From the NCBI GenBank assembly GCA_032718475.1, contig JAUCBJ010007452.1, forward strand, positions 32,079 to 96,078: a DNA stretch of 64,000 bases, given 5' to 3'. The notes under the pieces were generated by a model. The model ran no database searches, was not told the DNA's origin, and worked only from the letters and a program-made list of their open reading frames with translations. Source of the DNA: Nemertoderma westbladi (taxonomy: Eukaryota; Animalia; Xenacoelomorpha). How positions within the stretch are numbered: the stretch's first letter is position 1; each line of letters opens with the position of its first letter. Positions 21,497 to 51,283 of this stretch are shown here, piece after piece. The position numbers and the translations under genes were made by a program.

Positions 21497-21801
21497 GTAT
21501 AGCTGTATCATCATTATCAATATTTACATACGGCCTAAGGCAAATCGAGCAATTTCGAGAAAAGAACTAGATGATGATGATGAGCTCGATCATGGTTTCG
21601 AATCCTAGGGGCTTTTTAATTGTGATTGGAGATGTCAACCAGCCGAAATTGAACTACTTAGACTCCCTTAATTTAGTGAATATGATTGATGAACCCACTT
21701 TCACTTTCACTCGCTCAGAATCTCAGTTGGATGTCGCTTACGTCACTGCAGCATCCCCTTACAAATGTTTAATAATTGCTCCTATTGGTAACTCAGACCA
21801 T
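21497..21801 (+). pseudogene. LINE fragment 2: C-terminal APE endonuclease (frameshift in the GAT microsatellite)
   Basis: IINIYIRP...LIVIGDVN...PTFTFTR..QLDVAY...IGNSDH; GDxN, LD and SDH APE motifs. Confidence 0.9.
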
Positions 21802-28600: not shown

Positions 28601-30014
28601 CCTTTCTCGACATACTTTCTAATTGTCTTGTGAATGTACTCATTCTTCTCGGGGCTCCGTTTTAGCGTCTGCTTCAACTTACGAAGCCTCGTGAGTACCA
28701 TTCCTTTGTTGTCGGGTAACGGTAGCTTCGGTAGCTTCCATACCATTCCTATGGTATACCGCCCCTCATCGCATGTCATCGATTCCTTTACACTTTGTAG
28801 AGCCTGCTTGTCTTCTACCGAGGTTCCGACCCCGGTCTCCTTTAATCCCTCAAAATCCTGCCTGAGCAGTCTCCTGAGCTGCTCCTCCGCTCCCTCATCT
28901 CCCATTTCTCGCATAGTTCCCGCAAACATGCATCCTGATGTCTCCGACATCCTAAATGGTATCTTACTCCTGATTGGGCCACTCAGCATCCACCCGAATG
29001 GTGTTAATATCGCCACCGGGTCACACTGCCTGTCTTCGCCGAAGACCGTTCGCATTCTCTCGTGGGCCGTCGGGCAGTCCATTCCTACTATGATGGATAC
29101 CTTCCTGACGTCCACCTCTGGGATTGAGAAGTCGATACTGTCCAGGAATCTATATTGTTCGACCTCGATGTTGGTTGGCCGCCTGGCGTTAATATTTATC
29201 GACTCTATTACCTGGATGGGGTCGATGGTCGCCCCATAGTCGCATCCCGGTGCTATCGCTGCTATCGCGCACCGTCCGGTCCTCATCTCCAGAACCTCAT
29301 CTTTGCTGGAGATGGTTGTTACCGCCATTCTACTTGGCCTCATCCTCAATCCTATCTCTTCGGCCACCCAATCCTCAACTAAGGTGAAGGCTGCACCACT
29401 GTCGACCAGCATCAGTGTGGTTACTGATCGATTGCCTTCCCCGATTACCCTTACTGGTACTACCCCCAATAGTACCGTTCCTCTCTTCCTTGCCGCTACG
29501 GTGCTCGCTGCCATTGTCTGTCCTTTGCTCTGACCAAACTTAATTGGCGTTTCTTTGCATTGGTTGGCTCTATGTCCACTCATCACACATCGCGAGCAGA
29601 TTTAATTTCTTCTCGCGTATTCTACCTGATCTTCCCTAGGTAGTGCTTGCCAATACCTGCAGTTCATGGTCTGATGAAGCGCATTTGTATGTAGTTGGCA
29701 TTTGCTCTTTGGGTTGTAGCCATCCTTATAAAGTGCGTTGCATATCGCACTTATATTTGTACCAAAGTCCCTACTATTCTTATTGTTTGGGTTCGGCCTA
29801 CTGGGCGTGCTGGGGTTATGTTTATTTGTGTTGTTATTTTTCCCCTGTCCGCTCCATGATGTGGTCTTACCCCCGGCTACTTGTGGACTGGTAGTCCCCT
29901 GCGTTGCTGCGTACGGCAGTGACTGTCTGAGCTTTGGCAATGCGTTCGACGCGTTGTGCTCTGGTTTCGGCCTGTGGTAATCGGTCTTTGGTCCCTCTCC
30001 CAGGCTATCCTCGC
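25608..30014 (-). pseudogene. Element B Gag C-terminus and pol (PR-RT-RH-IN), with frameshifts, stops and an RT deletion
   Basis: Knuckles CQLHTNALHQTMNC and CSRCVMSGHRANQC; PR LVDSGA; RT FYVDDG, but the segment after FRNG that carries the first catalytic Asp is missing; RH FSDAS, WTDS, NPAD; IN GVDMFGP, YSDS, ERLVG. Confidence 0.92.
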
Positions 30015-32234
30015 TGTTGTGTCCTCTACGGTAGGGACTACCCTACAGCCTACAAATCTACCAATACGAAGCTATAGAATATCTCTATCCGTAAAGTCCA
30101 GTAGCATACCGCTTACCAGATCCTAGTAACGATGTATCTTACTATGAGACTCTAGTAATGAAACGGGCTCGTACAGTATCTGACAACAAATCCCAGTCCA
30201 GGATATCTAAACAAACAGATACAATACACAAACTACTACTGGCGAGGAGCAGAGCCTGGCGTCTATTCTATGTACGTGGGCGGGTCTAATGCCTACGTAC
30301 TAGACAAAAGGATACCTGTCCTCTAACCGGTATGGCAGATGTACAGTTACAGTAACAGACCAAACTCACGGGAAAACAATCCCCGCGCAGCGAATCCTAA
30401 CTATCGCTGACAGTCCTAAATACAGTAACTTGCCGCGGTGTGATTTATATGGTTTATATACGAGCTAAGTGGGTTACAGACCTAGCGTTACAATACTGAT
30501 CTCAGTCCTTAATCAGTCTAAAGGGGGTCGTGCCTAATGTAACAATACTGTTGAGCAGAAAACAACAGTTTAATAACGAAAATGAAATACTCCTTCTCAT
30601 GCCGTAACTAAATATCTGATCCTAATTTTACAAATACCGAAAGTACGATAAATATACCTTGCCTAAAGTGATCTAAAGTACGCTATAACTAGTAGGAACT
30701 CTAAGGGTAAATATGTTTTAGGGCGTGTGTGTGTGGGTGTGTTACAATAAAACAATTTTGGTGTATATCTTTTCACTAGGTTTTAGTGATTTTCTGACCG
30801 AAATGATACCGTGCGCTAGCTACTAAAATGAACTAGTCGCGTTTTGTAGAACTTTATACTCACAAATGACGTCAAAGCTCTCTCCTTCCTATCCACAACT
30901 CAAGGGGCAACCACGGTGTTAGTAACTACACCCGTGATCGGCACTAATACCAGATTCTGGTTGTAAGATAAGAAATAGGGGTTAGTCGCTACCGTACGTT
31001 AGCTGATCTGGTATACAAATTTGATTCTAGAACTTTGTTGCCGCGGTAGTTAGCAGCAATACCTATCAGTACGTGGCAAGGCGCGGTAGGATATTAATAA
31101 AAACCTCCCTAGGCCAAGCGATGTGCCGGTAGCAGAAATACTCCTTGCCTGATCAAATAACTAACTTCAGGCAGGGGGGGGGGGGGGTACTAATGTATGT
31201 TCTACAGAGCGAACCGGTACCAAACAGTCAGTACTACAAATCACTAAATTATGGAACATATGCTGTCCGTACCTAATATGTACTTGCGTACTGACGAACG
31301 GCAATAGCTCGCAATACCTGTGAGGTATACAGGTAACCCGGGGATTTGCAGGACTGACAAAGGGGTTTCTGCCTAAATATAATTATTTGATCCTAAATTT
31401 TGCGGCGTCCAGGACGGCGTCACGCTTACCCTGATCTATAGGTCTTACGGCGGGCAAGGGCGTCGAACAAAGTCTTACCTTCCTCATAAAGCGGGCGCTG
31501 CATGGCAAGTGGAGTATTTCGAAGGGCGAAGGGGGTGTGCGGTCAAATCCAATGTGGGCGCTAGCGTGTTGTGGACATCTTTCCCCTGCGTTGCTGACGG
31601 CCTAACGGTCTAGGCTGCCATCTTCCCGATGTTTGGCTGTCCCAAAGTTGGACCAAAAGAAAACATGTTCAGGAGTTTGCAGTGTATTTACAGTTTAGCA
31701 AAAGATTTATCAAACAGAATTACAATAGTTTCAACAAGAAACCAACAAAGTATAACGAAATGATTAGTGCAACTAGTGCAGCAAGTAAGCAAGTAGAAGT
31801 ATGTGTGTGTGATAACCGAAAGCAAACCAGCCCTTTATATACTAAATCTGGGACATAGAATTCACTAGAACCTTCGAGAGTATTCGATGGCCTCACATTG
31901 GAGCAATAAGATATTCCATGCCCTATGATTGGCCCAACTCATCGTTCGATACGTTGTACGCACCTCATTGGCTTACCAATCTGTACCAAATGAAAATAAA
32001 TGGCCCCAAAATACAAATTTCCCGACCGGGATTCGAACTCGTAACCTATCTGTAATGTAACCAACGCCTTAACCATCTGACCACTACGCCACGAGAGTAA
32101 CTAGAGGTTTTATGTATACAAATATGAATAGGCATATTACATTACTGTAACTTAATCAAAATGCGTCGGATTTTCGAAAGTTTTTACGTTAAAGTTAAAC
32201 TACAAATGCTATCTTATAGTGAAATAATTCATCA
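30015..32234 (-). repeat. 3' LTR of element C (2220 bp); PPT-like TGGAGCGG abuts at 32235-32242
   Basis: tgttgtgtcc...ttcatca, direct repeat of 45126-47346. Confidence 0.96.
32021..32090 (-). other. tRNA-derived Pol III promoter module (A and B boxes) in U3 of the C 3' LTR
   Basis: TGGTCAGATGG ... GAGTTCGAATCC at tRNA spacing; acceptor stem does not pair; TTTT follows shortly downstream. Confidence 0.7.
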
Positions 32235-32564
32235 CCGCTCCATGAAAACAGTAAGTAAGACTGTTTTCACCAATCGAAATACAAAATATTTACAAACTAC
32301 TTCTAAATCTACTGGTGGGACCTAAAATATAAAATAATCACTATCTAATTATTGCATACTTAATATTGCAGGTACAGCGTAAATACAATCCATCATACAT
32401 ACAAAATACAAATTTACTAATTAACTTTAGTGCATAAAATACAAAAGGGCTTTCGGTTATCAAGATAAACAAATTAAACAAATTAGATCAAAACAAATTA
32501 GAACAAATCAAACAAATAATTTCAATCTTTCAATAAATCTTTATATATTGTAAATATACATAAT

Positions 32565-32735
32565 AAACTTCCACCAAATTAAATCAGTCCAAATATAAAA
32601 TAAACACAAGGCGCTAATAACTTCCACCAAATTAAATCAGTTCAAATATAAAATAAACACAAGGCGCTAATAACTTCCACCAAATTAAATCAGTTCAAAT
32701 ATAAAATAAACATAATACGCTAATAACTTCCAAAT
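32565..32735. repeat. ~53-bp tandem repeat x3 in the 3' UTR of C
   Basis: taataacttccaccaaattaaatcagttcaaatataaaataaacacaaggcgc. Confidence 0.8.
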
Positions 32736-33895
32736 AAGTTGTAAAGTGTCCTTCTGCGCTTGTGTCCTTCTGGGCTCCTCCCCGAGGCGCACCCACGAGG
32801 CGGACACCTTTCCACCACCCCTGGGGCCAGTCTGACTGCCTGTTATTATCAGACCGGGCCGGAGGGTGGCCCGATGCTTCCCGGGTTCAATTTTCAATTC
32901 CCCGATCACACCGGCACAGATCGTCGCACGTGTAGCCAGATGGTCGGCTACTGTCAACTTACTGTGGCCTGACTGTACATTGAGCCAACTCAGAGAATCA
33001 ACCGGCGGGTGGACCAGTCAATAGCGATCGAGCACCAAGGTCGCCCTTGGGCCTAACCGACGGTCTTGTCCCAAGTGGGCTTGCGCTACCCGACATTGGA
33101 ATTTTGACTCGTTTTCACCCGCCTCGCCGGCAGTATTGGAGGATACTGACTAGCACAAAGGCTAGGAACAAGTCACCACTTAACAGTCACTGTACACGTG
33201 TACTCAACAGATGCTCAAAATATCAAGTACACAAATCGGACACATACCATACACACACAGAAGACAAAATCGGGAAAGACAAAATCGGGGTCAAAGTCAG
33301 AGGGGACAAATTGTATCGACTAGCAGGCTAATTGAGAGTACCTTATTTTGCCGTCAGGGCAAAATAACTTTGTGTGCACAAAGTATGCTGGGGCGCAGTA
33401 GAGATATGGTCCTACTAATACCAGCGGCGTCGTCTGGACCAACTGGAAAGGTTTCCCACACTCACTCGCAGTGGCCACACATACAATCACGTGTACTCAC
33501 GTACCCACAGCAACGGAAAGCTCAAAGACCCAAACAAATACCAAAGACCAATCAGCTGAACATGGAGACAATAACATATAGTATCAAAAAAACGGAACAG
33601 CTGATGGCCAAAGGAACCCATCCAAGCCCCAAGCAAACTGCCACTGGTCTCTCACATACAAATCATAGTTCATACCACATGAGCCACAAATCACGCCATG
33701 CCACCACACCCCTACTGTGTACAGGACTGGCAGTACGGCAACAGGCCGACTAGACGGAACCACGGCACCATGGCGATTCATGGTTCATTAGACACGAGGG
33801 CCTTCAGTGACTCCCTTGCACTATATTTAAGATTTAGCGTGCCCCCAGACCCTTCGAGTCCGCCGCCGCCTGTTGCTCGCACCCCTATAGAGACC

Positions 33896-34734
33896 TCACC
33901 TCTTTAGGTATGAGCTTAAAAGTTCGTCCTGCTGGTCTGGATATCTTCTCCTGAGCACAAATATAAATACCAAATATAAATACCAAATATAAATATCCAA
34001 ATATAAATATCTGGTTGGTCTTGCGACTGGTACTATCGCTTTGGTAGGATGGGGCCGAGGTTCTCGCGTCATCTCGACATGAGGTCGCTGTAGTCTCTGC
34101 GACAAACGCTGAGCGAAGGTGATACTATCGAAGAGCTCGGGTGTCATCTCCTTAGATTCGGTTTGATCGTGGGATATCCAGTAAAATGGTAGGCTCGCGA
34201 GCCTTCCGCCGAACTCCTCGATCTCGCCTTTCTCGTACGCCTTGTACGCCCTGTAGAGGCTCAAAGCTTCCCGTTTCTCTTGCGTCGACTTATTAGATTC
34301 GTCCACTACCATGCTGTAGACGTCTGGTTCGACTAATTTGGGTTCGTAAATAACGATTTCACCCGCGTTCGGTCCACTCATCTAGAACGAATGGTACGGA
34401 TTCGTCAAAGGGTATCCGCCTTCTTGGTAACGTAGACTTTGGTGGTATGAGCATCGCGCTAATATCAGCTCGGGGTTCTCGCAAACGTCGCTGGCATCGC
34501 ATAACGCATAGTAGGGGTACAACGCTTTGAACTCCGCGCGTAACTCCTCCGCTCTTTTGTTATAAGCGTCCAATCGCTGTCGCGTGATGTTTGGATCCGC
34601 CTTGGACTTAGCGAGCTTGGCTGTACTCCTAGCCATACTCTCCACTTCAAACACGTTAAAGTTTTGGCTCCATAACGATTAAACGGTGCCTGGTGCTCTT
34701 ATTCCTGCGTGGATCCCTGATAATAGTGTTTCTA
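33896..34734 (-). pseudogene. Element C accessory ORF of unknown function (one frame, two in-frame stops) downstream of a strong splice acceptor
   Basis: ORFs 34382-34654 and 33896-34381 abut in frame across a TAG; the frame extends up to ETLLSGIHAG... right after CTAAC-polypyrimidine-TAG at 34735-34760. Confidence 0.5.
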
Positions 34735-35409
34735 CTAGAGGAAGCACAAACAGAAGTTAGATGTGAGGAGACTTAGAGTTTTGTCGGCTTTTGGCTCAAC
34801 TTTGCTCTAAAACCCCTACCCATTTGCCTAATGACTTCGGGTTCGCGTGATTTCGCAGTGGCTCTTAATCCAAAATTGTGCCGATAAAAAACGAATTCCG
34901 GGTAAACTAGCCGCGAGTCTAAAATACTCACCTTTTAATTTCCCAAACTATGTTCCCAAAGAAATAATAGTGCAGTCGAGAATTAATTTGGTCTAAATAA
35001 TAGTAGACACGACTACGTAGAACAAGGCCGATTTTCTTTTCCAAAAAAATTTATCGGTAGGCTCGCAAGCCTTCCATCCGCTCTTGTCCTCCCCAATTTT
35101 AAATTTATCTAGCTGTATTCTAGAATTCACATTCACTGGAGAATCATTTTTCTTTTAAATCCAACTAAATGGATTTGTCTAATAAATTTTGAAAAATTGT
35201 CTCACTTGTGGGTTCCAAGTGGAATTCCATTCCTACTGTACACACAATCCCGCTCCTATGTGATACATGTTCACATATAAAGACAATGGAATTCCACCGC
35301 TGTCTCTATCTACAGTGAAGAGGATTACAAATGCACATACAGTAATACAAAATACTAAATTACTAAAATACGGTAAAGCTATGTGTGGCGGCCATCAAAG
35401 GTCCCACAT

Positions 35410-37260
35410 CTATTTACTAATATTGGGTGGAGATTTGTAGTCTCCTGTCTCGTTTCTAGTTTCCTCTAGGAGTACGAGACGTTGTACAGGCCTATCTACG
35501 GTACGTCCGTCGATAGTCCTTACAGTAACGGTCCTTACTACACCGGATGTAGGGTGTGTGGTCAAAATGACTCCAGTCAGCCAAAACCGTCTTTTCAGAT
35601 TAGCTTCAGCCAATAAAACGTGGTCACCACGTCTCAAACATCGTGTATTTAGATACCAAGAGGTTCTGGTCGAAATAGAGGGCAAATAATATTTCTGCCA
35701 TATTTCCCAGAATTTATTTGCAAGTAGTTGAGTGATTTTCCAAGCCTTGTTGCCGTATCCGTCACTATCAACGGGTACCGAAATGGGCAACAATGTCGTC
35801 GGCGCCTGCATAAGCAGGTGCGCTGGTGTCAAGGCAAACTGTGCGTCGTTATTGTCTGGGATCAAAGCTATCGGTCTAGTGTTTAAGATTGCTTCGATTT
35901 CTATTAGTAACGTCGTCAGTTGGTCGTCTGTCATAATGTGTTGCGTCGGTATCACTTTAGCCATAGCTGTTTTTATTGAGCCAATCAGCCTTTCCCAAAC
36001 GCCGCCTCTCCACGGACTGTCTGGAGTGTTGAAATTCCAAACAATACGGTGAGGACGTAGTTCCTCGGAAATCTGGTTTTGGTCCAACTTTCTCAAAGCT
36101 CTGGTTATCTCGTTCCGTGCGCCCACAAAGTTTGTCCCTTGGTCGCAGTAAATGGATTTGACCAATCCACGTCTAGCGATAAATCGCCGTAAGGCTAGGA
36201 TAAAGGCATTGGTGGTCAAATCTGTCACTCGCTCTATATGGACAGCTCTGCTGGCCATGCAAGTGAAGATCAATCCCCAACGTTTTACCTGTACCCTTCC
36301 GCGTTTCGCGATTATGGGTCCAAAACAGTCTATCCCTGTCTCAGTGAAAGGGGGTCTAAATGCCTGTAATCTTGCTAGTGGTAGTTCACTCATTTCTTGG
36401 TGTCCTATCCTCGCGTGCACCTTCTTACAAATCATACAGTTCCGTGTTACCGAACTCAGTGCCTTACTAGGTCTAATCAGTACAAACCTCGATCGTAAGT
36501 GTGATAGACAGTGGTGTCTACCCACGTGTTTGAGTTGTACATGTGCGTCCAGTATCATAGCGCGCTGTAATTCATGGTGTTGCGGTATGATGATAGGATA
36601 CCTAAAGTCAAGTGCAAAGTCGATGTTTTGGAGTCTGGACTTGTGACAAAGTAAGCCCCGGTAAATAATCGGACTCCAACTCAAAATCGGTGAAGACTTA
36701 ATCTGTTTACCTTGGTTGATCGCTGTGAACTCTTGTGCGAAATATCGCAATTGATAATGTCGAATGATATCAACTTCACAGTGGCCAACTTCCTTTAAGG
36801 TAAGTCTTCTAGGAAAGTCGCGTTTGCCTCTGGCATATTGTCTCAAACGTTTGAGCCATGCTAACTTGCGGCACGCGTCAGTCCATGATCTAGTTAGGTT
36901 CACTATCCGGTCAACGTAAGTGTTAGTGACGTCATCAGGTAAGGTGTAGTCGTAGTGTGGATACTTGTCTGGACTTGGTAGGCCCACGGGCCTTCCGGTA
37001 GGTTTGTCTGAGTCCCCAAGTTCGTCAATCTTTACGGTCTTACCTTTACCGTCCGCACCTAATGTGTCGACTGGCAGTAACGGTTTCAACTCTACAGTAT
37101 CAGTGTGTTCCTGTGAGCCTGTAAGCTTCCTAACCTTAGTCACACGTTTACCTGTAGGTGGTAAGTCAAGTACTTTCTTTGAGCAGAGTGTGATCGCTGT
37201 GGCCACACCTTTGTCGTCCAAAGAAGTCAAATTCGGTAAGTCTCTAAAAGTCCGCTCCAA
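35410..37260 (-). CDS. Element C integrase (HHCC, DDE, C-terminal domain)
   Basis: H..LKH...CMIC; GIDCFGP; YCDQGTNF; GGVWERLI; LNTRP; RPVQRLVLL. Confidence 0.93.
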   Translation of the reverse strand: MERTFRDLPNLTSLDDKGVATAITLCSKKVLDLPPTGKRVTKVRKLTGSQEHTDTVELKPLLPVDTLGADGKGKTVKIDELGDSDKPTGRPVGLPSPDKYPHYDYTLPDDVTNTYVDRIVNLTRSWTDACRKLAWLKRLRQYARGKRDFPRRLTLKEVGHCEVDIIRHYQLRYFAQEFTAINQGKQIKSSPILSWSPIIYRGLLCHKSRLQNIDFALDFRYPIIIPQHHELQRAMILDAHVQLKHVGRHHCLSHLRSRFVLIRPSKALSSVTRNCMICKKVHARIGHQEMSELPLARLQAFRPPFTETGIDCFGPIIAKRGRVQVKRWGLIFTCMASRAVHIERVTDLTTNAFILALRRFIARRGLVKSIYCDQGTNFVGARNEITRALRKLDQNQISEELRPHRIVWNFNTPDSPWRGGVWERLIGSIKTAMAKVIPTQHIMTDDQLTTLLIEIEAILNTRPIALIPDNNDAQFALTPAHLLMQAPTTLLPISVPVDSDGYGNKAWKITQLLANKFWEIWQKYYLPSISTRTSWYLNTRCLRRGDHVLLAEANLKRRFWLTGVILTTHPTSGVVRTVTVRTIDGRTVDRPVQRLVLLEETRNETGDYKSPPNISK

Positions 37261-37284
37261 TGGGTCCTTTAATGGAGTGTCTAG

Positions 37285-37680
37285 TAGACAGTCTGGTGAA
37301 GCGTCCGGTGAACAGTCTGGTGAGACGTCTGGTGAGACATAGCGCGGAACTTCCAGCGAAATGTCCTGTCATCGGTCCCAAGGTCTGTCTGGCGTAACTT
37401 CTGTCAGAAAGTCTGGTCCAAAGTCTGGTGGACAGTCTGTCGAGATGTCTGGTGGAAAGTCTGGTGAGACGTCCGGTAGACAATCTGTCGAGAGTTCCAT
37501 AAAACAATCTGGCGAACAATCCGGAGAACAATCTGGTGTCGCTTCTGGTGAATAATCTGGCGAATAATCTGGTGAACAATCCGGCGTAACGTCTGGTGAA
37601 ATCTCCCGCGGAACATCCGGCGAAAGATTCGTACAAGCGTCTGGTCGAGTGTCTGGTGAGACGTCTGGCGTAATGTCAGG
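37285..37680 (-). repeat. 12-bp coding repeat (PDxS)n between RNase H and integrase of C
   Basis: tctggtgaNacN units encode SPDCSPDYSPE... Confidence 0.85.
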
Positions 37681-40600
37681 TCTGGCGTCCAGGTCATCAG
37701 ATTTCGTCCGTCCTTGTTTCCTCTTGACCTTGGCGTTGGCTTTCGCTTTGGACTTGACAACCTTGTCGATTTTTATCTCGGCACCTTCTGGTATGGTGTT
37801 GGTTGTCGCGTCGAATAACGGTGGCCATTCGTCTGATGGTCGCTGTAGGAAATCGGGTCCTCTAAACCAAAAGGATTTATTGTCCGGTTTACAAAAGTCA
37901 AGCGGTTGCATCCCCCGTGACGCGATGTCAGCTGGGTTCAGCTTCCCTGGACAGTGACGCCAATCTTGTTTGAGCGACCGGTCTAGTATTTCAGCCCGTC
38001 TGTTGGCTACGAAAGTCTTGAACTCAAACGCTTTGTTGTTTATGTACCAAAGTACCAACGTCGCATCCGTCCAATATGTGACCTTCAAGTTAGCCTCCAG
38101 CTCGCGTTGAACTAGACTGACAATATCGGTGGATATCGTCCCGGCTTGCAGCTCTCCACGAGGTACAGTCATATACTTCAATGGCATTGTTCTAGCCTTT
38201 GAAGTAACGAGAGACACATCGTAGCTGTCCGATGTCACTTGTCGTCTAAGGTATAAAGTAACCCCCAATCCATCCTTGCTAGCGTCACTAAAGCTGTGAA
38301 GCTCTAATTCAGCAGGAAAGGTGGTTTGCAAAGGAAAGTATACCCTCGGTATGGTATAGTCTTGTATGAACGTCAGTTGGGCTTCCCAGTCCCTCCATCG
38401 CTCAGCTAACTTTTCTGGGATGGGATCGTCCCATTCCAGTCCGGCTTGCCAAATGCTGCGGAGTATGATCCTAGCATGTAGGATCACTGGACTAATGAAA
38501 CACAATGGGTCATACAATCGACTCATGGTCGATAAGCAAGTCCTCTTTGTGAGAGGTCTAGTCTGGTCGTTGGACCTTACACGTACCCTAAAATTGTCGG
38601 TGTTAGGGTCCCAACTAAGTCCTAATACTTTGGTCGTCGGTAGAGGTTCTAGGTCTAAGTCTAAGTCACCTCCACTGCGATCCATCGGGTCAAATGAGTT
38701 TACCAGTTCGGGTTCGTTGGAAGCGACCTTCGTCAGGTGAAATCCGCCCTCAGCGAGACAATCCTGGAGTTGGTGTGCTGCGGTTGTAGCGCGCTCCAAG
38801 GTGTCACAACTCTTGAGGCCGTCATCCACGTATAAATCTCGTTCCACTGTCCGAACTACTTCTGGGTCAAACTGGTCTTGTCTGTCCAATGCGGTCTGCT
38901 TTAAGGCGTACATGGTGCAGTTGGGGCTGTCCCTGGCTCCGAATACTCTTACCTGCATTTGGTAAGTTTCTGGCGGAAGTTCTAAGTTTCCGTCCGGATA
39001 CCAAAGAAACCTCAAGCTGTCCCTGTCCCGCTCCAAAGCCTTAACCTGGTGAAACATGGCCTCTACGTCACAGGTGAAAGCCACTTTGCGTTGTCTAAAA
39101 CGCATTAGGACTCCCATGCGGTAATTGTTCATATTCGGCCCGTCCATCAGTTCGCTGTTCATAGACATCCCTTGGTAAAGCGCGGCGCAGTCGTTGACTA
39201 CACGCACCTTGCCAGGTTTGTCCGGGTGTCGAACAAAATGATGTGGCAGGTAATATGTCTGATCTGTGGTTACCTCGGGATTTAACATCCTAATGGCGTA
39301 TCCCTTTTGGAGATACGTCTGAGGTTGTGCATTGTATTGCATATGGGCTGTCTCGTCTCGCAACAATCGCTGCCTTATTGATTTGAGTCGCCTCAAAGCA
39401 AGCGGGTAATTGTTAACGAGCTTAGGTTGTCCATTGCGCCACAACATACCAACCTCATAGTGGCCATTCGCGGTCTGGCGAATGGTATCTCTCATAATAT
39501 TTAATGACCGTTTTTCCTGTTCTGACATAGCGGTCTCGTAACTACCGGGTTCTGCTGAGTCCTGTTCCAACCATTGAATGGTCCGTTCAGTCAGCAGTCG
39601 GTCAAGCGCTGCTTGCACTGCGCCATGGTCCTCGTCCACGTCTTCGTCCGCTGCGGTGGCTAGTGTCAATGCGTCTGGTAGGCTCGCAAGCCTTCCGGTG
39701 TCACTAGTCGGCGTCGAATCGTCGTGCGGCGGTTTGACAACTTCTTGATCTATCGGTAGGCTCGCAAGCCTTCCAAGATCAACGACCGGTGTCGACGCCT
39801 GGTGGGTGGGGTCGATGACCTTTGGATTTTTCGGTAGGCTCGCAAGCCTTCCAAAATCCTCGTTCATCGAGTCATCCACAGCAACAACCCTTTGGTCTTC
39901 GGTAGTCAATACAACCTGGTTTACTGCAAGTAGTTGTAAGTCAGAGGTCCGTGTGGTCATGTCCAGATCAGTTACGTCAGTAGCGGTGGCGTCTGCGTTA
40001 GCGACGCAAGTCTGTCGTAGTGCCGTCCGTACAATTGGACCACGGGAGTGTGAAGGAGAGTTATCTATCATAGTAGTCAATAAACTACACGTACTCAGAA
40101 CATCGTCCTCCTGGTCACTTACCTCTAGTGAACGTATTGGTGCTCTAGTATACCAACCTATGGGAGTTCTACATGCGTAGGGGTTGCCCGCTGTAATAAC
40201 AGATGGGCGTGTCTCCCATACCTGATGTAAGTTAAACTGGTCTGTCCCAATTAACATCGCAATGGAACGATAATTAACAGGACATTCCGGTATTCCAAGG
40301 TGTCGGAAATACTTACGATCTTCCGGTGATTGCTCTGGCACAGGGCCGAGCAAGTTACTAAAGTCCTTCGTAGCTGCAAAGGTCAAATTTCTTACCGGAA
40401 GTAATGAGCGCTCCTCCTTGCTGTGTTCCGCTTTGGAAAGAAGGGTGTCTAAGGTTAGTTTTACTCTTGTCAGAGGGATCGCTCTCTTACCATGCATGCT
40501 GCTTACAGTATACTGAGCAGTCTTACCTTGACTCATGTCCGTAACCACATCGGCTACTTGTTCGTCGACATAACTATGCGATGACGCAGAGTCTAAGATG

Positions 40601-42021
40601 GCGTATATACGCTTGCTCCCTCGGGTTCCGGTAATCTTTATAGGAATCACGCTAAACCCTTTCAATTGGTTCTGTCTGAGGAGCGTTATCGATGGCTGTT
40701 CCTCACCCGCATGCACGTAAAAAGTGTCGTCTTCCTCCTCGTCCTCGTCCGATGATCCTGACTGATCCATACAGTCTGCATAAAAGGTACGGATCTCGCG
40801 CGGCGCACGCTCCTTATAAAGCGAGTCGCATCTAGCCGCTTTATCTGGATGCTCTCGTCGAAAGCGTTTGGTCGGAGTATGACTGGTTGTGTGGAGCAAC
40901 GCGTCATGGTTACGTCCACACTGAGGACATGTATCGTCGCTCGGGCAATCCTTCCGGACGTGTCCTGGCTTCATACATCTCCAGCAGGAATCTAACGATC
41001 GAATTTGGAGTCTCCTTTCTTCAATCCCTAACTCCTTAAAAGCGCGACATCCATGAAGTTTATGTCCGCTATGGTTTCTGCCGTTCCGCTCGCAGTATGA
41101 GCATCCCGCAAAGTCCGCCGGCAACTGTTGTCGTGGCTGCGTGGTGCCGATAGGCGTCAGAACTTTAGAAGTTTCAGTAGGGGTGGCGTAGGTAACGGCT
41201 TTCGCGTTCGTCGGAAACGGTTTAGTCCGATTCGGCGCAGAAATAGCTATCCCTTCCGCCGCGATATGGTGATCGGTATAGTTCGATCGAGTCTCGATCA
41301 CGGCCTCCCGTGAAATCAGTTGATAGACGTCGGTGAGTTTTAAAAGCCCGCCGGCCTCTTCACCCTGGTACTCGATGCGTCGCCATTCTTGTCGTAGTCG
41401 ATGATGAAGTCGACCGATTATCCTGATGAGAACCGTCGGTGCGTTAGCGTACTCGAGTTGTCCAATGGACCGTAAAGTCCCTATAGCGTTCTTGATTTCG
41501 TCCGCGAGTCGTAGAAGATCGATCGGTTTCGAAATGCTGCCTCCTTTACAGAGGTCTTCGATAATGGATTTAGCCATGGCGACGTTACCTCCGTAAATCG
41601 AATATAAACGGTCGTACGCTAACTCAAAGGCATCGGGAACACCAATGAAGGTTTCCGCTAATCGTTTCGGCTCACCAGACAGGACTAGGAGCAAGTAATT
41701 AAACTTCTCCGTCGAGGTGAAAGCACACTTAGCGATCTGGGACTCTACGTAGTCTACCAATGTACGCCAGTGTTTCGCGTTGCCAGAGAACTTCGGCGGT
41801 TGCTGTGCCGGTAATCCGTGTCTAGCCGCGAATTTCGCAATCTCGCTAACCAAATCCAACTGTCCGCGTCCCTGTTCGGTGGCGTCGTCCAGTCGCTCCC
41901 TTCCGCGCGTTGTTCGTCGGTAGGAATTATTTACGGGATCTTCTTCTCGATGTGTCGGAGTCTGTCTAGTCTCCTGTTCTCTCCTTGGTGGTCGATGTTG
42001 TTCAGGTTGTTCTAACTCCAC
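37369..42021 (-). CDS. Element C Gag-PR-RT-RNase H polyprotein (1550 aa)
   Basis: PPKFSGNAKHW; knuckles CSYC..H..C, CWRCMKPGHVRKDC, CPQCGRNHDALLH; AILDSASS; TCDVEAMFHQV; LYVDDG; FSDASK; WTDA; NPADIASRG. Confidence 0.95.
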   Translation of the reverse strand: MELEQPEQHRPPRREQETRQTPTHREEDPVNNSYRRTTRGRERLDDATEQGRGQLDLVSEIAKFAARHGLPAQQPPKFSGNAKHWRTLVDYVESQIAKCAFTSTEKFNYLLLVLSGEPKRLAETFIGVPDAFELAYDRLYSIYGGNVAMAKSIIEDLCKGGSISKPIDLLRLADEIKNAIGTLRSIGQLEYANAPTVLIRIIGRLHHRLRQEWRRIEYQGEEAGGLLKLTDVYQLISREAVIETRSNYTDHHIAAEGIAISAPNRTKPFPTNAKAVTYATPTETSKVLTPIGTTQPRQQLPADFAGCSYCERNGRNHSGHKLHGCRAFKELGIEERRLQIRSLDSCWRCMKPGHVRKDCPSDDTCPQCGRNHDALLHTTSHTPTKRFRREHPDKAARCDSLYKERAPREIRTFYADCMDQSGSSDEDEEEDDTFYVHAGEEQPSITLLRQNQLKGFSVIPIKITGTRGSKRIYAILDSASSHSYVDEQVADVVTDMSQGKTAQYTVSSMHGKRAIPLTRVKLTLDTLLSKAEHSKEERSLLPVRNLTFAATKDFSNLLGPVPEQSPEDRKYFRHLGIPECPVNYRSIAMLIGTDQFNLHQVWETRPSVITAGNPYACRTPIGWYTRAPIRSLEVSDQEDDVLSTCSLLTTMIDNSPSHSRGPIVRTALRQTCVANADATATDVTDLDMTTRTSDLQLLAVNQVVLTTEDQRVVAVDDSMNEDFGRLASLPKNPKVIDPTHQASTPVVDLGRLASLPIDQEVVKPPHDDSTPTSDTGRLASLPDALTLATAADEDVDEDHGAVQAALDRLLTERTIQWLEQDSAEPGSYETAMSEQEKRSLNIMRDTIRQTANGHYEVGMLWRNGQPKLVNNYPLALRRLKSIRQRLLRDETAHMQYNAQPQTYLQKGYAIRMLNPEVTTDQTYYLPHHFVRHPDKPGKVRVVNDCAALYQGMSMNSELMDGPNMNNYRMGVLMRFRQRKVAFTCDVEAMFHQVKALERDRDSLRFLWYPDGNLELPPETYQMQVRVFGARDSPNCTMYALKQTALDRQDQFDPEVVRTVERDLYVDDGLKSCDTLERATTAAHQLQDCLAEGGFHLTKVASNEPELVNSFDPMDRSGGDLDLDLEPLPTTKVLGLSWDPNTDNFRVRVRSNDQTRPLTKRTCLSTMSRLYDPLCFISPVILHARIILRSIWQAGLEWDDPIPEKLAERWRDWEAQLTFIQDYTIPRVYFPLQTTFPAELELHSFSDASKDGLGVTLYLRRQVTSDSYDVSLVTSKARTMPLKYMTVPRGELQAGTISTDIVSLVQRELEANLKVTYWTDATLVLWYINNKAFEFKTFVANRRAEILDRSLKQDWRHCPGKLNPADIASRGMQPLDFCKPDNKSFWFRGPDFLQRPSDEWPPLFDATTNTIPEGAEIKIDKVVKSKAKANAKVKRKQGRTKSDDLDARPDITPDVSPDTRPDACTNLSPDVPREISPDVTPDCSPDYSPDYSPEATPDCSPDCSPDCFMELSTDCLPDVSPDFPPDISTDCPPDFGPDFLTEVTPDRPWDR

Positions 42022-42093
42022 GCTGGTTCGTGATCGATCCGACGGTTGCGCTTCGAGTCGCTCTTCTATCTGAGCTAGTCGGTCCGTTACAGG

Positions 42094-44167
42094 TCAAATT
42101 ATTTCGGCGAGTCTGTTGGTCCTGATCGCTTCCGCTGGTTGCAACGTGGGTTTCTGTTGGGGTGTTTCTCGAGGTGGATTGTCGATGTATGGATTCGTCG
42201 ATCTCTCCTCCCGTTTGTAATCCACTGCCGCTGCCGCTCCAGTACGGAATATTTCCCGTTCCGTCGACTCCGAGTCGCTAGATGAGTCGCTGTCGTCCGG
42301 ATAAGGTGGTTGGCGGGTTCGCATCCGGCGTATTATTCTTGGTCGAGTTCGTTGTGGTCTGGGATCTATGGCTCTCCATTGTTCGGCAGGCTCGCAAGCC
42401 TTCCACGAAGTCGTAGGTCTCGTTGAACTCGGTTCGATCCTGTGGGTACTACCCACATCCATCCTCTTCCGTTGTTCGGTAGGCTCGCAAGCCTTCCACG
42501 AAGTCGTAGGTCTCGATAAACATTGGGTGAGAGGTCTTGTAAAAACATCGGAGTTAAGTGCTACTGTAGGTTTATAAATGACTGGGTTCGGGCAGCACGT
42601 CACAGGTTTAACTTGTAATGGTTTACTCACCTGTTTTACTGTCATAAACGCAGGTTCGTCTCTCTCTACAAGTAAACTACGACTTACTGTAGGTGGACTA
42701 GTTATGTTACCTGCTAAAATTGGCGATGAAGTCGCCCTAGGTTGCGGTATTTCCGTCACAATAAACCTACTACCTTGCGTCGAGCGCACAGGCGTTATTT
42801 CCTTAGGTATCGTAACAAAGACCGGTTTTATCGGAGTCGTGGGTTTGAGCATAGGAATAACTTGGGGAAAACGTTTACAGTAATCCTCGACGAACTCCTC
42901 TCCTCGATCTATCGCTCCCACACTTCCTTCCTCGATTCGCTTCTGAATTCCGCGATATCGAGTTTCCATGCGATCCAGGGCAGACAAGTCGTGTCCAGCT
43001 CGAGACCTTATAGATCTATCTCTCGCATCGAGTTTGAGGTCCTCTTGCGCGTTCGCCGCCTTGCGCGATCTGCGATTTAGTTCGAACTGGAGCTGCATCT
43101 CCCTTTCGCGTTGATCTGCTTCCTTTTAGTGTACCGCTAACTCCGCTTCCTGTATAGCTAAACGAGCGTTTATTTGTCGCGCCTCTAACGTGGCACTAGC
43201 GTCGGATGCTGCTACATCCTTTCGCTACATCCTCTCTGCGCTGTTTTTCTCCTTCGATGGCGATCTGTGCCATCTGTCGTTGCGCTTCTTCCTCGACGAC
43301 TTGTTGTCGGCGTGCGACCTCCTGTTGTTGTCGAATAATTCCAGACGCTGTTCTACTAACGTTGCCAACGTCGCCAACGTCGCTCTGTACGCTAACGAAC
43401 GATCTATCCAGTGGTGGAATTTGGTAGGCTCGCGAGCCTTCCGTAGATAGAACTTCTGTCGTCCCTCTCGGTACAACTTCCGGTTCTTCGATCGGTACTC
43501 CGCATCTACGAAGAAAATTGGTGAGCGTCCCTAACCTCCCGTCCAGACAGTATAGTTCTTCTTCCTCTTCGGGTTGTAACAACGCGTCCGAAATTGACTC
43601 ACCTAACAGTTGGTCGAGTTGTTCTTGCTGAGTCGATCCTACAACCGACTTAAACTGAATGAGGCTTTCCCTCGCAATTACCAACTTATCGATTATCTTT
43701 ACCTGAGTAAAGTTGTCGCCACGCAACTCTGCAAGTTCGTGTAAACCTTTAAGTTTATCTATGGAAGCATGTACCCTACTTTCTATCCTTACCTGTAAGG
43801 CATAGAACTCGTATCTCGACATCGGGGCGGTTAACTCACGTAAAAGGCGAAAACCTTCTCCGAAGTTTTGAGTAATCTGGGCCATGTGTCCTCCTATACT
43901 CCTAATAACATTCTCCTGGCTTCCAGTCGAACTTACCATGTCCGGTTCCCGCGATCTGGTCTGCGGGACGGTAAGGAAATCTTCGATTCTGCCGTCGCCA
44001 CGCGTTGCGGCTTCTGGTATTTCCGTTCGGGGTACCGGCGACGCACGCGGTGTGACATCGGTAGAATCTCGGGTTCTCCTTCTCGGTTCGTCTACTGTCG
44101 ATCTGTCTGGGTCGCACGAGTCATAGTCGGTAGGGGGGTATCGAGTCGAATGGGGTGTGTCACTCAT
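42094..44167 (-). pseudogene. Element C Gag N-terminal region, broken by a small tandem duplication, a stop and a frameshift
   Basis: ORFs 43196-44167 and 42094-43098; duplicated aggatgtagc near 43205-43235 shifts the frame; coiled-coil E/R-rich segments. Confidence 0.75.
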
Positions 44168-45115
44168 GTCTTATTATATACGTCAAGTACGGGTAATAAA
44201 ATGTCAAAGTATCGGAATGTTGAAATGTCAAACTTACCTTGGTATATATAGTATATATATACCCTAACCGGTACAAATAAATCAACAAAGTCAGAATGTC
44301 GAAATGTCAAAATGTCGAAATGTCCAAATGTCAAACTTACCTTGATATATATATATATCATATATATACCCTAACCGGTACAAATAAACTAACAAAGTAT
44401 ATAATAAAATATGTAATAATCTAGCCTACCGGCTAAATTTGTACGAATAAATGAGATAACGGTATACGTTACCAAAATGTAGATCAACAAGTACAAATAA
44501 TAGGCAAAACAGCAACGTCTAACGGGAAAATAAGTACCAACAACACTACTAATAGACAGTGAAACCCACAAATTTTGAGTACTACTGTGCTTTCTTAAGT
44601 TTGAACGACACGAGTCGTAAAACTTACGTTCCTTTGACCTTCCAGTCGTGCAAATTCCCAAATACAAACCGGACGTGGGTCGTTCCGTTTTTCGGCGGCG
44701 CGGACGAATTTATTGTCTCCCAAACTTTGCGAAAAGCGGTCTAATCCTCGAAGCGGTCCAGAAATGAGTCCTTGAGTCCTGAAAAGTCGAAGGTTGGAGT
44801 TTTACTTCTACGCTACGAAAATTCTTCCTAGGTACCGATACAACTTGGTCTTTAAACCCTATGTACCTTTTCAAGTACCGAAAAGTAACACCGCACACAC
44901 ACGGCGTAAAACAAAATGCTACAAACTAACTATTAGCTAGTCAAATATTAAATACAAAACTACTAGCTACCCTAAAGCCTACTGAAGCAGGGGACGTTCT
45001 ACAAATTACTAAATTTACTAACCTTAATTTTTTAAATATCTCCTACTTACAATAGCTAACAGTATGTGAGAGACCTCACGGTTGGGATCAATACTATACA
45101 CTAATTTGTATAATA

Positions 45116-45125
45116 TATACCTCAC
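45116..45125 (-). promoter_or_regulatory. Non-tRNA primer-binding site of C (GTGAGGTATA), complementary to LTR segment 46431-46440
   Basis: No TGG; the 10 nt abutting the LTR exactly complement minus-strand TATACCTCAC in the LTR. Confidence 0.7.
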
Positions 45126-46945
45126 TGTTGTGTCCTCTACGGTAGGGACTACCCTACAGCCTACAAATCTACCAATACGAAGCTATAGAATATCTCTATC
45201 CGTAAAGTCCAGTAGCATACCGCTTACCAGATCCTAGTAACGATGTATCTTACTATGAGACTCTAGTAATGAAACGGGCTCGTACAGTATCTGACAACAA
45301 ATCCCAGTCCAGGATATCTAAACAAACAGATACAATACACAAACTACTACTGGCGAGGAGCAGAGCCTGGCGTCTATTCTATGTACGTGGGCGGGTCTAA
45401 TGCCTACGTACTAGACAAAAGGATACCTGTCCTCTAACCGGTATGGCAGATGTACAGTTACAGTAACAGACCAAACTCACGGGAAAACAATCCCCGCGCA
45501 GCGAATCCTAACTATTGCTGACAGTCCTAAATACAGTAACTTGCCGCGGTGTGATTTATATGGTTTATATACGAGCTAAGTGGGTTACAGACCTAGCGTT
45601 ACAATACTGATCTCAGTCCTTAATCAGTCTAAAGGGGGTCGTGCCTAATGTAACAATACTGTTGAGCAGAAAACAACAGTTTAATAACGAAAATGAAATA
45701 CTCCTTCTCATGCCGTAACTAAATATCTGATCCTAATTTTACAAATACCGAAAGTACGATAAATATACCTTGCCTAAAGTGATCTAAAGTACGCTATAAC
45801 TAGTAGGAACTCTAAGGGTAAATATGTTTTAGGGCGTGTGTGTGTGGGTGTGTTACAATAAAACAATTTTGGTGTATATCTTTTCACTAGGTTTTAGTGA
45901 TTTTCTGACCGAAATGATACCGTGCGCTAGCTACTAAAATGAACTAGTCGCGTTTTGTAGAACTTTATACTCACAAATGACGTCAAAGCTCTCTCCTTCC
46001 TATCCACAACTCAAGGGGCAACCACGGTGTTAGTAACTACACCCGTGATCGGCACTAATACCAGATTCTGGTTGTAAGATAAGAAATAGGGGTTAGTCGC
46101 TACCGTACGTTAGCTGATCTGGTATACAAATTTGATTCTAGAACTTTGTTGCCGCGGTAGTTAGCAGCAATACCTATCAGTACGTGGCAAGGCGCGGTAG
46201 GATATTAATAAAAACCTCCCTAGGCCAAGCGATGTGCCGGTAGCAGAAATACTCCTTGCCTGATCAAATAACTAACTTCAGGCAGGGGGGGGGGGGGGTA
46301 CTAATGTATGTTCTACAGAGCGAACCGGTACCAAACAGTCAGTACTACAAATCACTAAATTATGGAACATATGCTGTCCGTACCTAATATGTACTTGCGT
46401 ACTGACGAACGGCAATAGCTCGCAATACCTGTGAGGTATACAGGTAACCCGGGGATTTGCAGGACTGACAAAGGGGTTTCTGCCTAAATATAATTATTTG
46501 ATCCTAAATTTTGCGGCGTCCCAGGACGGCGTCACGCTTACCCTGATCTATAGGTCTTACGGCGGGCAAGGGCGTCGAACAAAGTCTTACCTTCCTCATA
46601 AAGCGGGCGCTGCATGGCAAGTGGAGTATTTCGAAGGGCGAAGGGGGTGCGCGGTCAAATCCAATGTGGGCGCTAGCGTGTTGTGGACATCTTTCCCCTG
46701 CATTGCTGACGGCCTAACGGTCTAGGCTGCCATCTTCCCGATGTTTGGCTGTCCCAAAGTTGGACCAAAAGAAAACATGTTCAGGAGTTTGCAGTGTATT
46801 TACAGTTTAGCAAAAGATTTATCAAACAGAATTACAATAGTTTCAACAAGAAACCAACAAAGTATAACGAAATGATTAGTGCAACTAGTGCAGCAAGTAA
46901 GCAAGTAGAAGTATGTGTGTGTGATAACCGAAGGCAAACCAGCCC

Positions 46946-47085
46946 TTTATATACTAAATCTGGGACATAGAATTCACTAGAACCTTCGAGAGTATTTGAT
47001 GGCCTCACATTGGAGCAATAAGATATTCCATGCCCTATGATTGGCCCAACTCATCGTTCGATACGTTGTACGCACCTCATTGGCT
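46946..47085 (-). promoter_or_regulatory. Probable Pol II promoter in the C 5' LTR (TATATAAA plus upstream CCAAT boxes)
   Basis: TATATAAA on minus at 46946-46953; attgg (CCAAT on minus) at ~47009, ~47040 and ~47079. Confidence 0.55.
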
Positions 47086-47132
47086 TACCAATCTGTACCA
47101 AATGAAAATAAATGGCCCCAAAATACAAATTT

Positions 47133-47202
47133 CCCGACCGGGATTCGAACTCGTAACCTATCTGTAATGTAACCAACGCCTTAACCATCTGACCACTACG
47201 CC
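47133..47202 (-). other. tRNA-derived Pol III module, copy in the C 5' LTR
   Basis: Same sequence as 32021-32090. Confidence 0.7.
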
Positions 47203-47346
47203 ACGAGAGTAACTAGAGGTTTTATGTATACAAATATGAATAGGCATATTACATTACTGTAACTTAATCAAAATGCGTCGGATTTTCGAGAGTTTTTACG
47301 TTAAAGTTAAACTACAAATGCTATCTTATAGTGAAATAATTCATCA

Positions 47347-50300
47347 CTCGCTATAGACTGGGTCCGTTATAAGTTCAGCTTCATAGTTTAAGAAGCTTGA
47401 CATCTCTTCTAAACCCGGTTCCGCACCCTTCTTATCTCGAGTGGAGAAAGCAATTTTTCTCCACTTATTGCGCAGCCAAATCGGTAGTGCCTGCGCTATC
47501 GTAGTGATGTTGTTGGACGCATTGAGTTCGTATGGCGCTTCCAGCGTCTTTAGCACGATTAGCGCCTTCTCGACTTTGTTAGCGAATGTCTTTATGCTAA
47601 CGGGGCCATCCTGTAGGCCACCCGATGTTATACCTCTCAGGGTCTGCCGGATGATCTTGGCCGGGTGCCCGTATTCCTTGTCTAACGCCCGCCATGCCGT
47701 CGTGAAGCCACCCTCGATGCCCTTGTATTGCCTCACGATGTCGTATGCTGGGCCCCCTGTATATACTTGCAGATACTTTAGGCACTCCGCCTGCATCAAA
47801 TTCTTTGTTAATATTTCGTTACTATACATGCGCCGAAACTGTAGGTATTCTTCCGGCCTACTTCCATCGAATTTGAATGGTTCCACGGGTGGTAACTCGA
47901 TCCTGGTCTTTAATGCATCGATTAACGTGGCCATCATCCCCATCGCTTGCGCTTCCAATGGGTTCGATAGATGCTGCATAGGTTCTCCCGTGGGTGCGGT
48001 CCGTTCGTCCTGTCTGCCGCTTTCCTCTGACTTGGATATATCATAGGGGGTAGCGGCCCCCTCCATATTTCTGTGTCGCACGATCTATTCTCGTCCAAGG
48101 GGTTCGATGTTCTTACTCCTATTGGGGTATATTGTTGATATTGTGATGGGGAAATGTCACCCTGTCCCCCCCCCCCCCCCCACCGGTATGCTTGGTACTG
48201 GGGTTGATGTTAATATATTGGGGCCCATACACCTATCCGCAATAATTCTCCCCTCCCCTGGGTATATGTTATGTCCTTGCATGCTGTAGTCATACTGCTG
48301 TGCTGGTACCGGTATAGGCCTATCTACTTCTGGCCTACCTGCCGGTATATACTCCGTGACTTCCGGGTTTAATCCCGTTGTTTGCGCTATCCTATCGCCT
48401 ATATTATCTCTCTCAGCATGGCCTATGGTATGTGCAGTAAGGCCTACAGTATGTCCTGCAGTCTGTATGTGTCGCTCGGGATCAAAGTTTATCCTTCTCG
48501 AATAATCCTCCCCGCGGCTACCATATTCTCGATCGGTAGGTATATCCCGTCGGGAAGTTTCTCTTCGACCCCCTCTACTGCTCTCGTCCTCGTGCCGGTA
48601 CGTCCTGTACCTCTCTCTCTGTGCGTAATACGCCTCGTCAGGTCACGTTCCTCCGGGGCGATGGCAATCTCCCGAAGTTCGACCCCACTGACTCTCCGTC
48701 TCCACCTCTACTACCGACGGCTCGCTATCCGTCCTCGCTCTCCTGTCGTTCGTGGCGACACTTCTTCTACTCTCTTCCTTTCTTCTCTCTGTAGTGCAGT
48801 ATTCCCGCTCGTGAGATCTCTCGTCGACCTCCCGGTTAAACTCCACTGTTCTTCTTCCCTCTTCTGATTGGGCTCGACGCCTCGTCGCGGGCCCTCTCGC
48901 GACGTCAACCTGTCTCTCTCTGCTCGATCGCACGCCGCTGGGGATACTCGCAATCCCCTTACTACTCTCCATCGCCGGGTGCTGCGGTTCACCTAATTCG
49001 CCCCGCGCATTATCCGCCGACGCTTGTGGGACACTCTTTGCCCGCTCGCCGCTAATCTCTCGTTGTGGGGCTCCTGTAGCCCCCCCCCCCCCCCACTCGC
49101 CACATCTAACTTCACTATCTCTTACTTCGCTACTACACCCCTCTCTAGTCGACACATTAACCCTACTGCGGCTGGGTCTATTCACCCCCGCCTCTCCCTC
49201 TGCTACTGTGTGGCCTACCAGGCCCTCTACTTCCTGCCTACTAACTACGTGGCCTACCAGGCCCTCACTGGGTTGACTCAACCCCGCCACTTCCTGCCTA
49301 CTAACTACGTGGCCTACCAGGCCCTCGTCGGGTTGACTCAACCCGGTCACTTCCTGCCTACTAACTACGTGGCCTACCAGGCCCTCATCCGTCGGGCTGC
49401 CCGCGCCCGCCGCGTTTATATTAATAGCACCATTACTAGTATCGCCCGTTAGATCAATTAAATCCTCCAAATCAATTAAATTGTTTTGCACGCCTAAATT
49501 AGAAACGGAATTACTTTGTTCGTTCGAAATAAGATTATCTGAATTATTCTGCGTATTTATATTATTTGGATTATTTTGTAAATTTACATTATTTGAATTA
49601 TTTTGTAGATTTATATTACTTGAATTATTTGTATTTAAATTTAAATTACTACTACTAGGTAAAATATTTCCTGCAATGAAAGTTTGGTTAGAATTATCCA
49701 ATACGGTACTATTAATATTAACGTTATCTACTGTATTATTATTACCCCCCCCCCCCCCCCGCCCGTACGGTCACACCAGTCTTGGGTCTGTCGTGCGGTC
49801 CCTGTAAGTGAGGTATTAATAAATGTTTCCACAGCCCTTGGCTCCTCATAAATACTCGAGCCAGTCTCGCTCTCTGACAGCCCCATCTGCGCCAGTTCTA
49901 GTCGGCGTTTCTGTTTCGCCTGATACTGCATAAGCCCCTTTAGCCGGGCATGCATACCATCCCGCACACGTTTTCTCTCACTCTCCCTCTCTCTGCCCTC
50001 TCGTGAATTCTGATCGGCTAACTCTGCCTCTCTCGCAACTCTCTCCAGTCGTCTCGCCTCGCGCTCTTTTCGCTCGTTATCCGCACTCACCTCGCGCTCT
50101 TTACGTTCCGCCTCACGCTCTGCCTCGCGCTCTTTACGTTCCGCCTCACGCTCTGCCTCGCGCTCTTTACGTTCCGCCTCACGCTCTGCCTCACGCTCTT
50201 CTTGCTCCTTCCTTTCCATCCTCCCTATTTCCTCGCACTCCCTAAATCTTCTCGCAGCCCTCTCGGCCCTCTCTTTGTTCTCTCTAACCAGCTCTTTCTC

Positions 50301-51274: not shown

Positions 51275-51283
51275 TCTTTCCAC
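51275..51283 (-). promoter_or_regulatory. Primer-binding site of B (GTGGAAAGA), complementary to LTR segment 51501-51509
   Basis: The 9 nt abutting the LTR complement minus-strand TCTTTCCAC in the LTR; contains TGG, so a tRNA primer is not excluded. Confidence 0.55.

Follow-up and report, generated by a model that had tools for sequence, protein, structure and literature searches.

Why one retrotransposon should carry the same short hairpin many times over, in coding and non-coding sequence alike, is the question raised by the window, a 64-kb stretch of DNA from Nemertoderma westbladi that was analysed at its full length of 64,000 nucleotides. A first-pass annotation, made from the sequence alone, described nine dispersed copies of a 20-nt hairpin across an element designated C and interpreted them as a distributed cis-acting RNA signal for Gag packaging, export or localisation. 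RNA selection, dimerisation and compaction are little known in LTR retrotransposons beyond Ty1 and Ty3. For BEL/Pao, the group to which element C belongs, a literature search that covered few subscription papers turned up no report of a cis-acting RNA element, nor any publication describing hairpins or palindromes that recur along the RNA of such elements.

Structure and setting of element C

Element C is a young BEL/Pao LTR retrotransposon of 17.3 kb on the minus strand (30015..47346), flanked by a 5-bp target-site duplication (30010-30014 and 47347-47351). Its 5' LTR (45126..47346, minus strand) and 3' LTR (30015..32234, minus strand) are 2.2 kb each, are ~99.6% identical and have TG...CA ends, which with the target-site duplication is the structure by which LTR retrotransposons are recognised. 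The gag-pol region (35410..44170, minus strand) has the order gag-protease-RT-RNase H-integrase and contains DUF1759, a CCHC-type knuckle pattern, a protease-like motif, RT, Peptidase_A17, integrase and DUF5641. The combination of the BEL-type Pfam families DUF1759, Peptidase_A17 and DUF5641 places the element in BEL/Pao, and the same families are present in its best protein relatives, at 41-46% identity (31% in one row). BEL/Pao elements are known from chordates, insects, nematodes, molluscs and annelids, according to a portion of PMC8556966. In the window copy, the gag-pol reading frame is broken once and contains two in-frame stops, and the 3' accessory ORF (33896..34678, minus strand), which has one in-frame stop, matches no Pfam family at the cut-off.

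Element C is nested within the gag region of another BEL element, B (21798-51874 overall), the LTRs of which lie at 21798-22386 and 51280-51874 and are 97.5% identical, and a third BEL element, A, is located at 9589-21496. Both neighbours are 22-44% identical to C in protein segments, and the motif is absent from both. The element C family is abundant, with 13,558 and 6,359 matching contigs in two sequencing runs, figures of depth that do not equal copy number.

Several other features of the locus were recorded. Element A has LTRs that are 98.5% identical, with matches to gag and protease and none to RT or integrase, and its 3' ORF (11153-11902; 249 aa) is Cys/His-rich with a weak zinc-knuckle match (E 0.016, below cut-off). 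The U3 of both element C LTRs contains a tRNA-like stretch on the minus strand (47130-47205 and ~32020-32095), noted by eye from its D-loop- and T-loop-like words; ARAGORN reported 0 genes and Rfam made no call for this stretch, which is possibly a captured tRNA-derived fragment. A TATA-like word ~400 nt into the LTR (45126-46950) would imply an R/U5 of ~1.8 kb, which is very long, and by eye a TGG-type primer-binding site is not evident directly after the 5' LTR. At 33200-33750, the AT skew is opposite to that in the rest of element C and the plus strand has open frames of 115 and 189 codons, for which Pfam returned 0 matches; this region possibly holds an antisense ORF. At 37250-37650, the RNase H-integrase linker of element C contains ~25 degenerate repeats, each four residues long and of the D-x-S-P type, that are absent from 25 relatives. 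Tandem arrays with periods of 62 nt and 89 nt lie towards the window ends (1-2400 and 55600-59000), and the CpG observed/expected ratio stays at 0.9-1.1 throughout the window, whether in elements or in host DNA, and therefore gives little sign of CpG methylation decay.

Motif copies and their anatomy

All nine copies were recovered where the first-pass annotation had placed them, with 0-4 mismatches to the commonest form, and no other site in the window comes closer than 6. The coordinates in that annotation are plus-strand starts, and the motif as written sits on the minus strand, which is the sense strand of element C; the single orientation claimed for the motif applies to 9/9 copies. Copy 1 (43422..43443, minus strand, as are all copies) lies in the gag N-terminal region in the EGSRAY frame, with loop CGCG and outer bases C.A. 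Copies 2 (42477..42498) and 3 (42384..42405), related by a local 93-nt duplication, are in the WKACEP frame and share loop UGCG and outer bases U.G, copy 3 having an A.G mismatch. Copies 4 (39832..39853), 5 (39754..39775) and 6 (39676..39697) each belong to a 78-nt unit of the protease-RT linker, read in the GRLASLP frame, and have loop UGCG, with outer bases U.G in copies 4 and 5 and C.A in copy 6. Copy 7 (36976..36997) lies in the RNase H-integrase linker, where it encodes GRPVGLP, and has loop CGUG, a C-G closing pair and outer bases C.A. Copy 8 (35055..35076; UGCG, U.G) is non-coding, between pol and the 3' ORF, and copy 9 (34187..34208; CGCG, C.A) is in the GRLASLP frame of the 3' accessory ORF. 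The independence from reading frame that had been noted is borne out by five copies of the GRLASL type, two of WKACEP, one of EGSRAY and one non-coding, and the described anatomy by the loops (UGCG in six copies, CGCG in two, CGUG in one) and the purine mismatch (A.A in eight, A.G in one). Local duplication, which had been invoked for some copies, accounts for five of the nine, in two duplications.

A tenth copy is present near 33960 in other family members, in contigs of three sequencing runs, as judged from a loose end at 33962 and from joints at 33955-33962 that fit only across a motif; the window copy has an AT-rich, microsatellite-like run at this site (33958..34010, minus strand).

When up to 3 mismatches were allowed, a degenerate pattern built from the copies, whose own zero mismatches are by construction, matched no sites in the 64-kb window other than these nine (chance mean 0.03; 0/100 shuffles reached the count). 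Each site was also matched on the plus strand at 2-3 mismatches because the motif is near-palindromic. A covariance model of the nine copies, a check that the annotation had proposed, scored them at 36.8-45.1 bits, by construction, and the rest of the window at 13.4 bits or less, their own reverse strands aside; within element C, it found no weaker copies above 10 bits. Equal frequency in unrelated DNA, one of two outcomes that the annotation named as fatal to its proposal, was not observed, the motif being restricted to element C within the window. Rfam 15 gave 0 matches at E up to 1 across 30000-47400, and a resemblance to the histone stem-loop was ruled out on this basis. A resemblance to REP-like palindromes was also rejected, with 2 exact matches in a prokaryote genome collection against 2.2 expected by chance.

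The 20-mer itself was confirmed, but it is not the whole unit. The bases beside it are U.G in 5/9 copies and C.A in 4/9 and are never Watson-Crick (Fisher p 0.008; 0.03 with local duplicates merged), and since this outer pair is always one of these two isosteric wobbles, the motif extends to 22 nt. Within the 20-mer, 15/20 positions are invariant among the nine copies.

Predicted pairing between copies

The motif has a 14-nt core that, counting G.U, is self-complementary in 9/9 copies on the sense strand and in 2/9 on the antisense strand. It is the Y-G-Y-G loop that makes the core self-complementary, all three loop variants preserve this on the sense strand, and in two copies the 14-mer is a perfect DNA palindrome. 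The core was missed in the first-pass annotation and points to pairing of the kind found in dimerisation elements (DIS/PAL); together with the 22-nt unit, it is new in this analysis.

Full self-complementarity of the core on the sense strand leads to the prediction that copies switch from hairpin to copy-to-copy duplex. Alone, each copy is predicted to fold into a small hairpin; paired with any other copy, it could instead form a 14-bp duplex flanked by purine mismatches, with the sense-strand duplex predicted to lie 13-20 kcal/mol below two hairpins and the antisense duplex ~8 for seven copies. Equilibrium folding predicts mutual pairing of neighbouring copies at 0.91-1.0 and local hairpins for isolated copies at 0.56-0.94. 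Pairing of a U.G-type with a C.A-type copy is predicted to place Watson-Crick pairs at both ends of the duplex. In these models, self-complementarity combined with a choice between hairpin and extended duplex, as in DIS/PAL elements, is a property of 9/9 copies on the sense strand.

Covariation within the element C family is thin, with 6/8 pairs that never vary and one pair with a double change, a result that 215/500 shuffles also reach. This is the change from U-A to C-G in the copy at 36977, which had been put forward as compensatory; the change is present, but as a single event it does not exceed the shuffles.

Placement along the element

Along the internal region, the copies are grouped into six clusters at spacings of 0.9-2.7 kb, and none lies in the LTRs or the leader, the first copy being inside gag. 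Nine to ten near-identical copies are thus spread over 9.5 kb of coding and non-coding sequence. In a polyprotein alignment with 25 relatives that covers six of the copies, three fall where the relatives have no residues, one at a site that is 43% occupied, and two in the Gag N-terminus, where identity is 0.07-0.14 at occupied sites. These copies sit in inter-domain linkers or poorly conserved stretches. An explanation at the peptide level is ruled out by the three reading frames and the non-coding copy, and insertion of a larger mobile unit is ruled out by the flanks, which past 22 nt show no relationship except within the two local duplications.

Distribution among relatives

The nearest proteins share 41-46% identity with element C over RT-RNase H and no more than 42% over integrase; protein searches returned no relative of intermediate distance and none above 46% identity, and motif peptides were found in 0/242 protein relatives. 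A metagenome scan covered the best 80 of 550 BEL-like stretches (576,380 nt in 48 clusters, with 59 loci of at least 6 kb), and the motif was found in 0/80 of these distant loci, the best match having 4 mismatches in antisense and the best model score being 13 bits (E 4.9). A de novo search for dispersed 14-mers identified 5 independent clusters in element C, at most 3 in 3/80 loci, and 2 in elements A and B. A related-locus scan of viral contigs confirmed 0/83 candidates, and the motif pattern gave 4 single matches in viral contigs, which were taken as chance. As far as these sequences extend, the motif appears to be restricted to the element C family, and the lack of such a repeat in the 80 distant BEL loci means that BEL elements do not generally require one.

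Sequence variation in the motif

The motif is real and non-random, and sequence comparisons within the family indicate that it is probably selected at the nucleotide level. Among the three 78-nt units, the motif is identical at 20/20 positions, and the flanks are identical at only 17, 24 and 28 of 58 bases. Given the peptide GRLASL, the chance of the exact codons is 7e-5 per copy.

Polymorphism was surveyed in family contigs over 39630-39890, a region covering 3/9 copies, and differences of at least 1% were listed (27 rows at 26 places, in four of which the differences are nearly private to the window copy). At this threshold, 2/60 motif bases and 24/201 flank bases are polymorphic (Fisher p 0.035), a comparison drawn from two informative sequencing runs that bear the same organism label and in which contigs of other copies artificially raise the depth at two of the three sites, hiding variants near 1%. 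The counts are 0/60 versus 15/201 at 2% or more (p 0.018), 0/60 versus 10/201 at 5% or more (p 0.07), and 0/18 versus 10/69 at third codon positions (p 0.085), and omission of thinly read edges gives p 0.004-0.03. Counted over 22 nt, the figures are 4/66 for the motif and 22/195 for the flanks, and two of the three copies surveyed show 1-2% variation in the 5' outer base (39697 and 39775). Gene conversion among copies would mimic lowered motif polymorphism. A separate list of 40 family differences (of 1782) has 0/40 within a motif, where only ~0.7 would be expected.

The variants that do occur mostly keep pairing. The variant at 39755 gives a G.U pair, and that at 39684 breaks the closing pair, at 1.0% in one run and absent in the other. 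The family variant C20U, in 8 contigs in each of two runs, gives a G.U pair on the sense strand only, as do both changes in one contig with A13G plus C20U; a further contig is missing the 3' arm of a copy. This strand asymmetry rests on four changes, with a probability of ~0.07 from a base rate of 52%. A U.G pair is the intermediate of a U-A to C-G change. In the surveyed region, one contig each, from one sequencing run, has lost or gained a 78-nt unit, and motif copy number in the protease-RT linker therefore varies within the family. CpG decay is not favoured as a source of the loop variation, given the CpG ratio of the window, yet 8/29 flank CpG bases varied.

Discussion

The distributed cis-acting RNA signal proposed in the first-pass annotation holds up in part, in that a selected, strand-specific reading is favoured by frame independence, by fewer polymorphisms than in the flanks and by the sense-strand wobbles; the within-family covariation that had been offered for it is thin. 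Our preferred explanation, advanced tentatively, is that the nine copies may serve as family-confined, repeated pairing and packaging handles on the genomic RNA of the element. Hairpins would form first, during transcription, and the element's own Gag, as a zinc-knuckle chaperone, would bind them and convert them to copy-to-copy duplexes. Duplexes in cis, within one RNA, would compact an unusually long genome, and duplexes in trans, between two RNAs, would provide dimerisation and self-recognition for packaging. The module may have multiplied through local duplication and through copying into linkers that tolerate it, and may then have been kept by selection. The role given to Gag is one that we infer from Ty1, MLV and HIV-1, as portrayed in parts of PMC6844567, PMC3247676 and PMC7599994. 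Against pairing, one double change, propagated by copying, could account for the U.G/C.A pattern, and a duplex can be drawn for any hairpin; the folds here are predictions.

Whether pairing is needed at all is where a second RNA reading departs from this explanation. The hairpin may instead be a repeated docking site for a protein (Gag, the accessory protein, or a host export or localisation factor), with no duplex step and with loop self-complementarity that is incidental. Near-invariance that extends to the unpaired purine-purine mismatch and the non-Watson-Crick outer pair suggests recognition beyond pairing alone, isolated copies are predicted as local hairpins at 0.56-0.94, and dispersed stem-loops with a common motif drive capsid assembly in ssRNA viruses, as one part of PMC6281560 describes. 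Bases 7-10 are Y-Y-Y-G in 9/9 copies, a word recognised by MLV NC in the relevant part of PMC3247676, although the word is common and serves as a lead only. Docking does not account for all three loop variants remaining self-complementary on the sense strand, and the viral dispersed signals are described as differing from one another about a short motif, unlike the near-identical 22-mers here; we regard docking without pairing as somewhat unlikely. One or other of these two RNA readings, pairing handles or docking hairpin, is together likely to be correct.

A role for the motif is not required if template switching in reverse transcription, or gene conversion, has seeded and homogenised a sticky palindrome in tolerant linkers without function. 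The origin of five of nine copies in two local duplications, the rare contigs that gain or lose a 78-nt unit, the four haplotypes among the copies, which one copying tree explains, and the absence of the motif from distant relatives are all compatible with such a by-product, and gene conversion among copies would also reduce polymorphism. However, identity ends sharply at 22 nt while the duplicated flanks have decayed, the copies lie kilobases apart in three frames and non-coding sequence in a single orientation, and the observed changes mostly keep pairing, which makes a functionless origin distinctly unlikely. More improbable still is a near-palindromic DNA site bound by a dimeric host or element protein, for transcription, chromatin or integration, on the integrated copy or cDNA. 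The near-perfect DNA palindrome, perfect over the 14-mer in two copies, and the U.G/C.A outer pattern, which is identical read on either strand, would suit such a site, but 9/9 copies share one orientation, the variants form G.U pairs in sense RNA but mismatches in duplex-DNA symmetry, and the LTRs, where promoter sites are expected, have no copies.

The preferred explanation, repeated pairing and packaging handles, has partial precedents. In Ty1, PAL1/PAL2 are folded as a hairpin in monomeric RNA and pair between molecules in the dimer, and in the presence of NC, MLV DIS-1/DIS-2 and HIV-1 DIS rearrange into extended duplexes, according to sections of PMC6844567 for the former and of PMC3247676 and PMC7599994 for the latter. 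The element C motif resembles MLV DIS-1/DIS-2 and HIV-1 DIS, as these are presented in the same sections of PMC3247676 and PMC7599994, in being a short pseudo-palindromic hairpin with purine mismatches and the potential for an extended duplex, and element C, like retroviruses with a DIS, encodes a zinc-knuckle Gag. Retroviral DIS elements, however, number one or two and lie in the 5' leader, the DIS/PAL class as a whole having one to three copies there, whereas element C has nine to ten dispersed copies; the HIV-1 DIS has a 6-nt loop palindrome, whereas the loop here is 4 nt. The Ty1 palindromes are likewise RNA palindromes of an LTR retrotransposon, promoted by Gag and with alternative contact points (in part of PMC6844567), but they are 6-7 nt, AU-rich, located in the 5' UTR and unrepeated along the genome, and Ty1 is a Copia element whereas C is BEL/Pao.

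The analogy to packaging signals that the annotation had drawn fits in dispersal and fails in sequence. Packaging signals of ssRNA viruses and HBV (MS2 and STNV among them) are many dispersed stem-loops on the genomic strand that overlap coding sequence, as set out in one portion of PMC6281560, and the motif likewise occurs as multiple dispersed stem-loops on what would be the packaged strand. Those signals have variable stems around a short loop motif and graded affinity, unlike the near-invariant, self-complementary 22-mers of element C. As the motif lacks a defining feature of DIS/PAL elements (position and number) and of packaging signals (variability), it was classed under neither. A model of germ granules, in the part of an in-silico study that treats it (PMC13079385), also proposes palindromes for RNA self-recognition, but in host mRNAs and with exposed palindromes, whereas the element C palindrome is predicted to lie inside a hairpin and would need a chaperone.

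A stronger form of the pairing explanation, which we consider rather doubtful, is that around ten interchangeable DIS-like palindromes would let the RNA zip to itself and to sister RNAs, as a multivalent, family-specific code for self-recognition and compaction with two complementary copy types, U.G and C.A. Such a multivalent palindrome code is not described for any retroelement in the literature searched. The sharply bounded 22-nt unit, present in three frames, is a direct handle for separating pairing from protein docking. If true, a multivalent pairing code would extend the model of a single 5' DIS, and would point to a way in which an oversized element could keep its RNA separate from the RNA of other families in the same genome.
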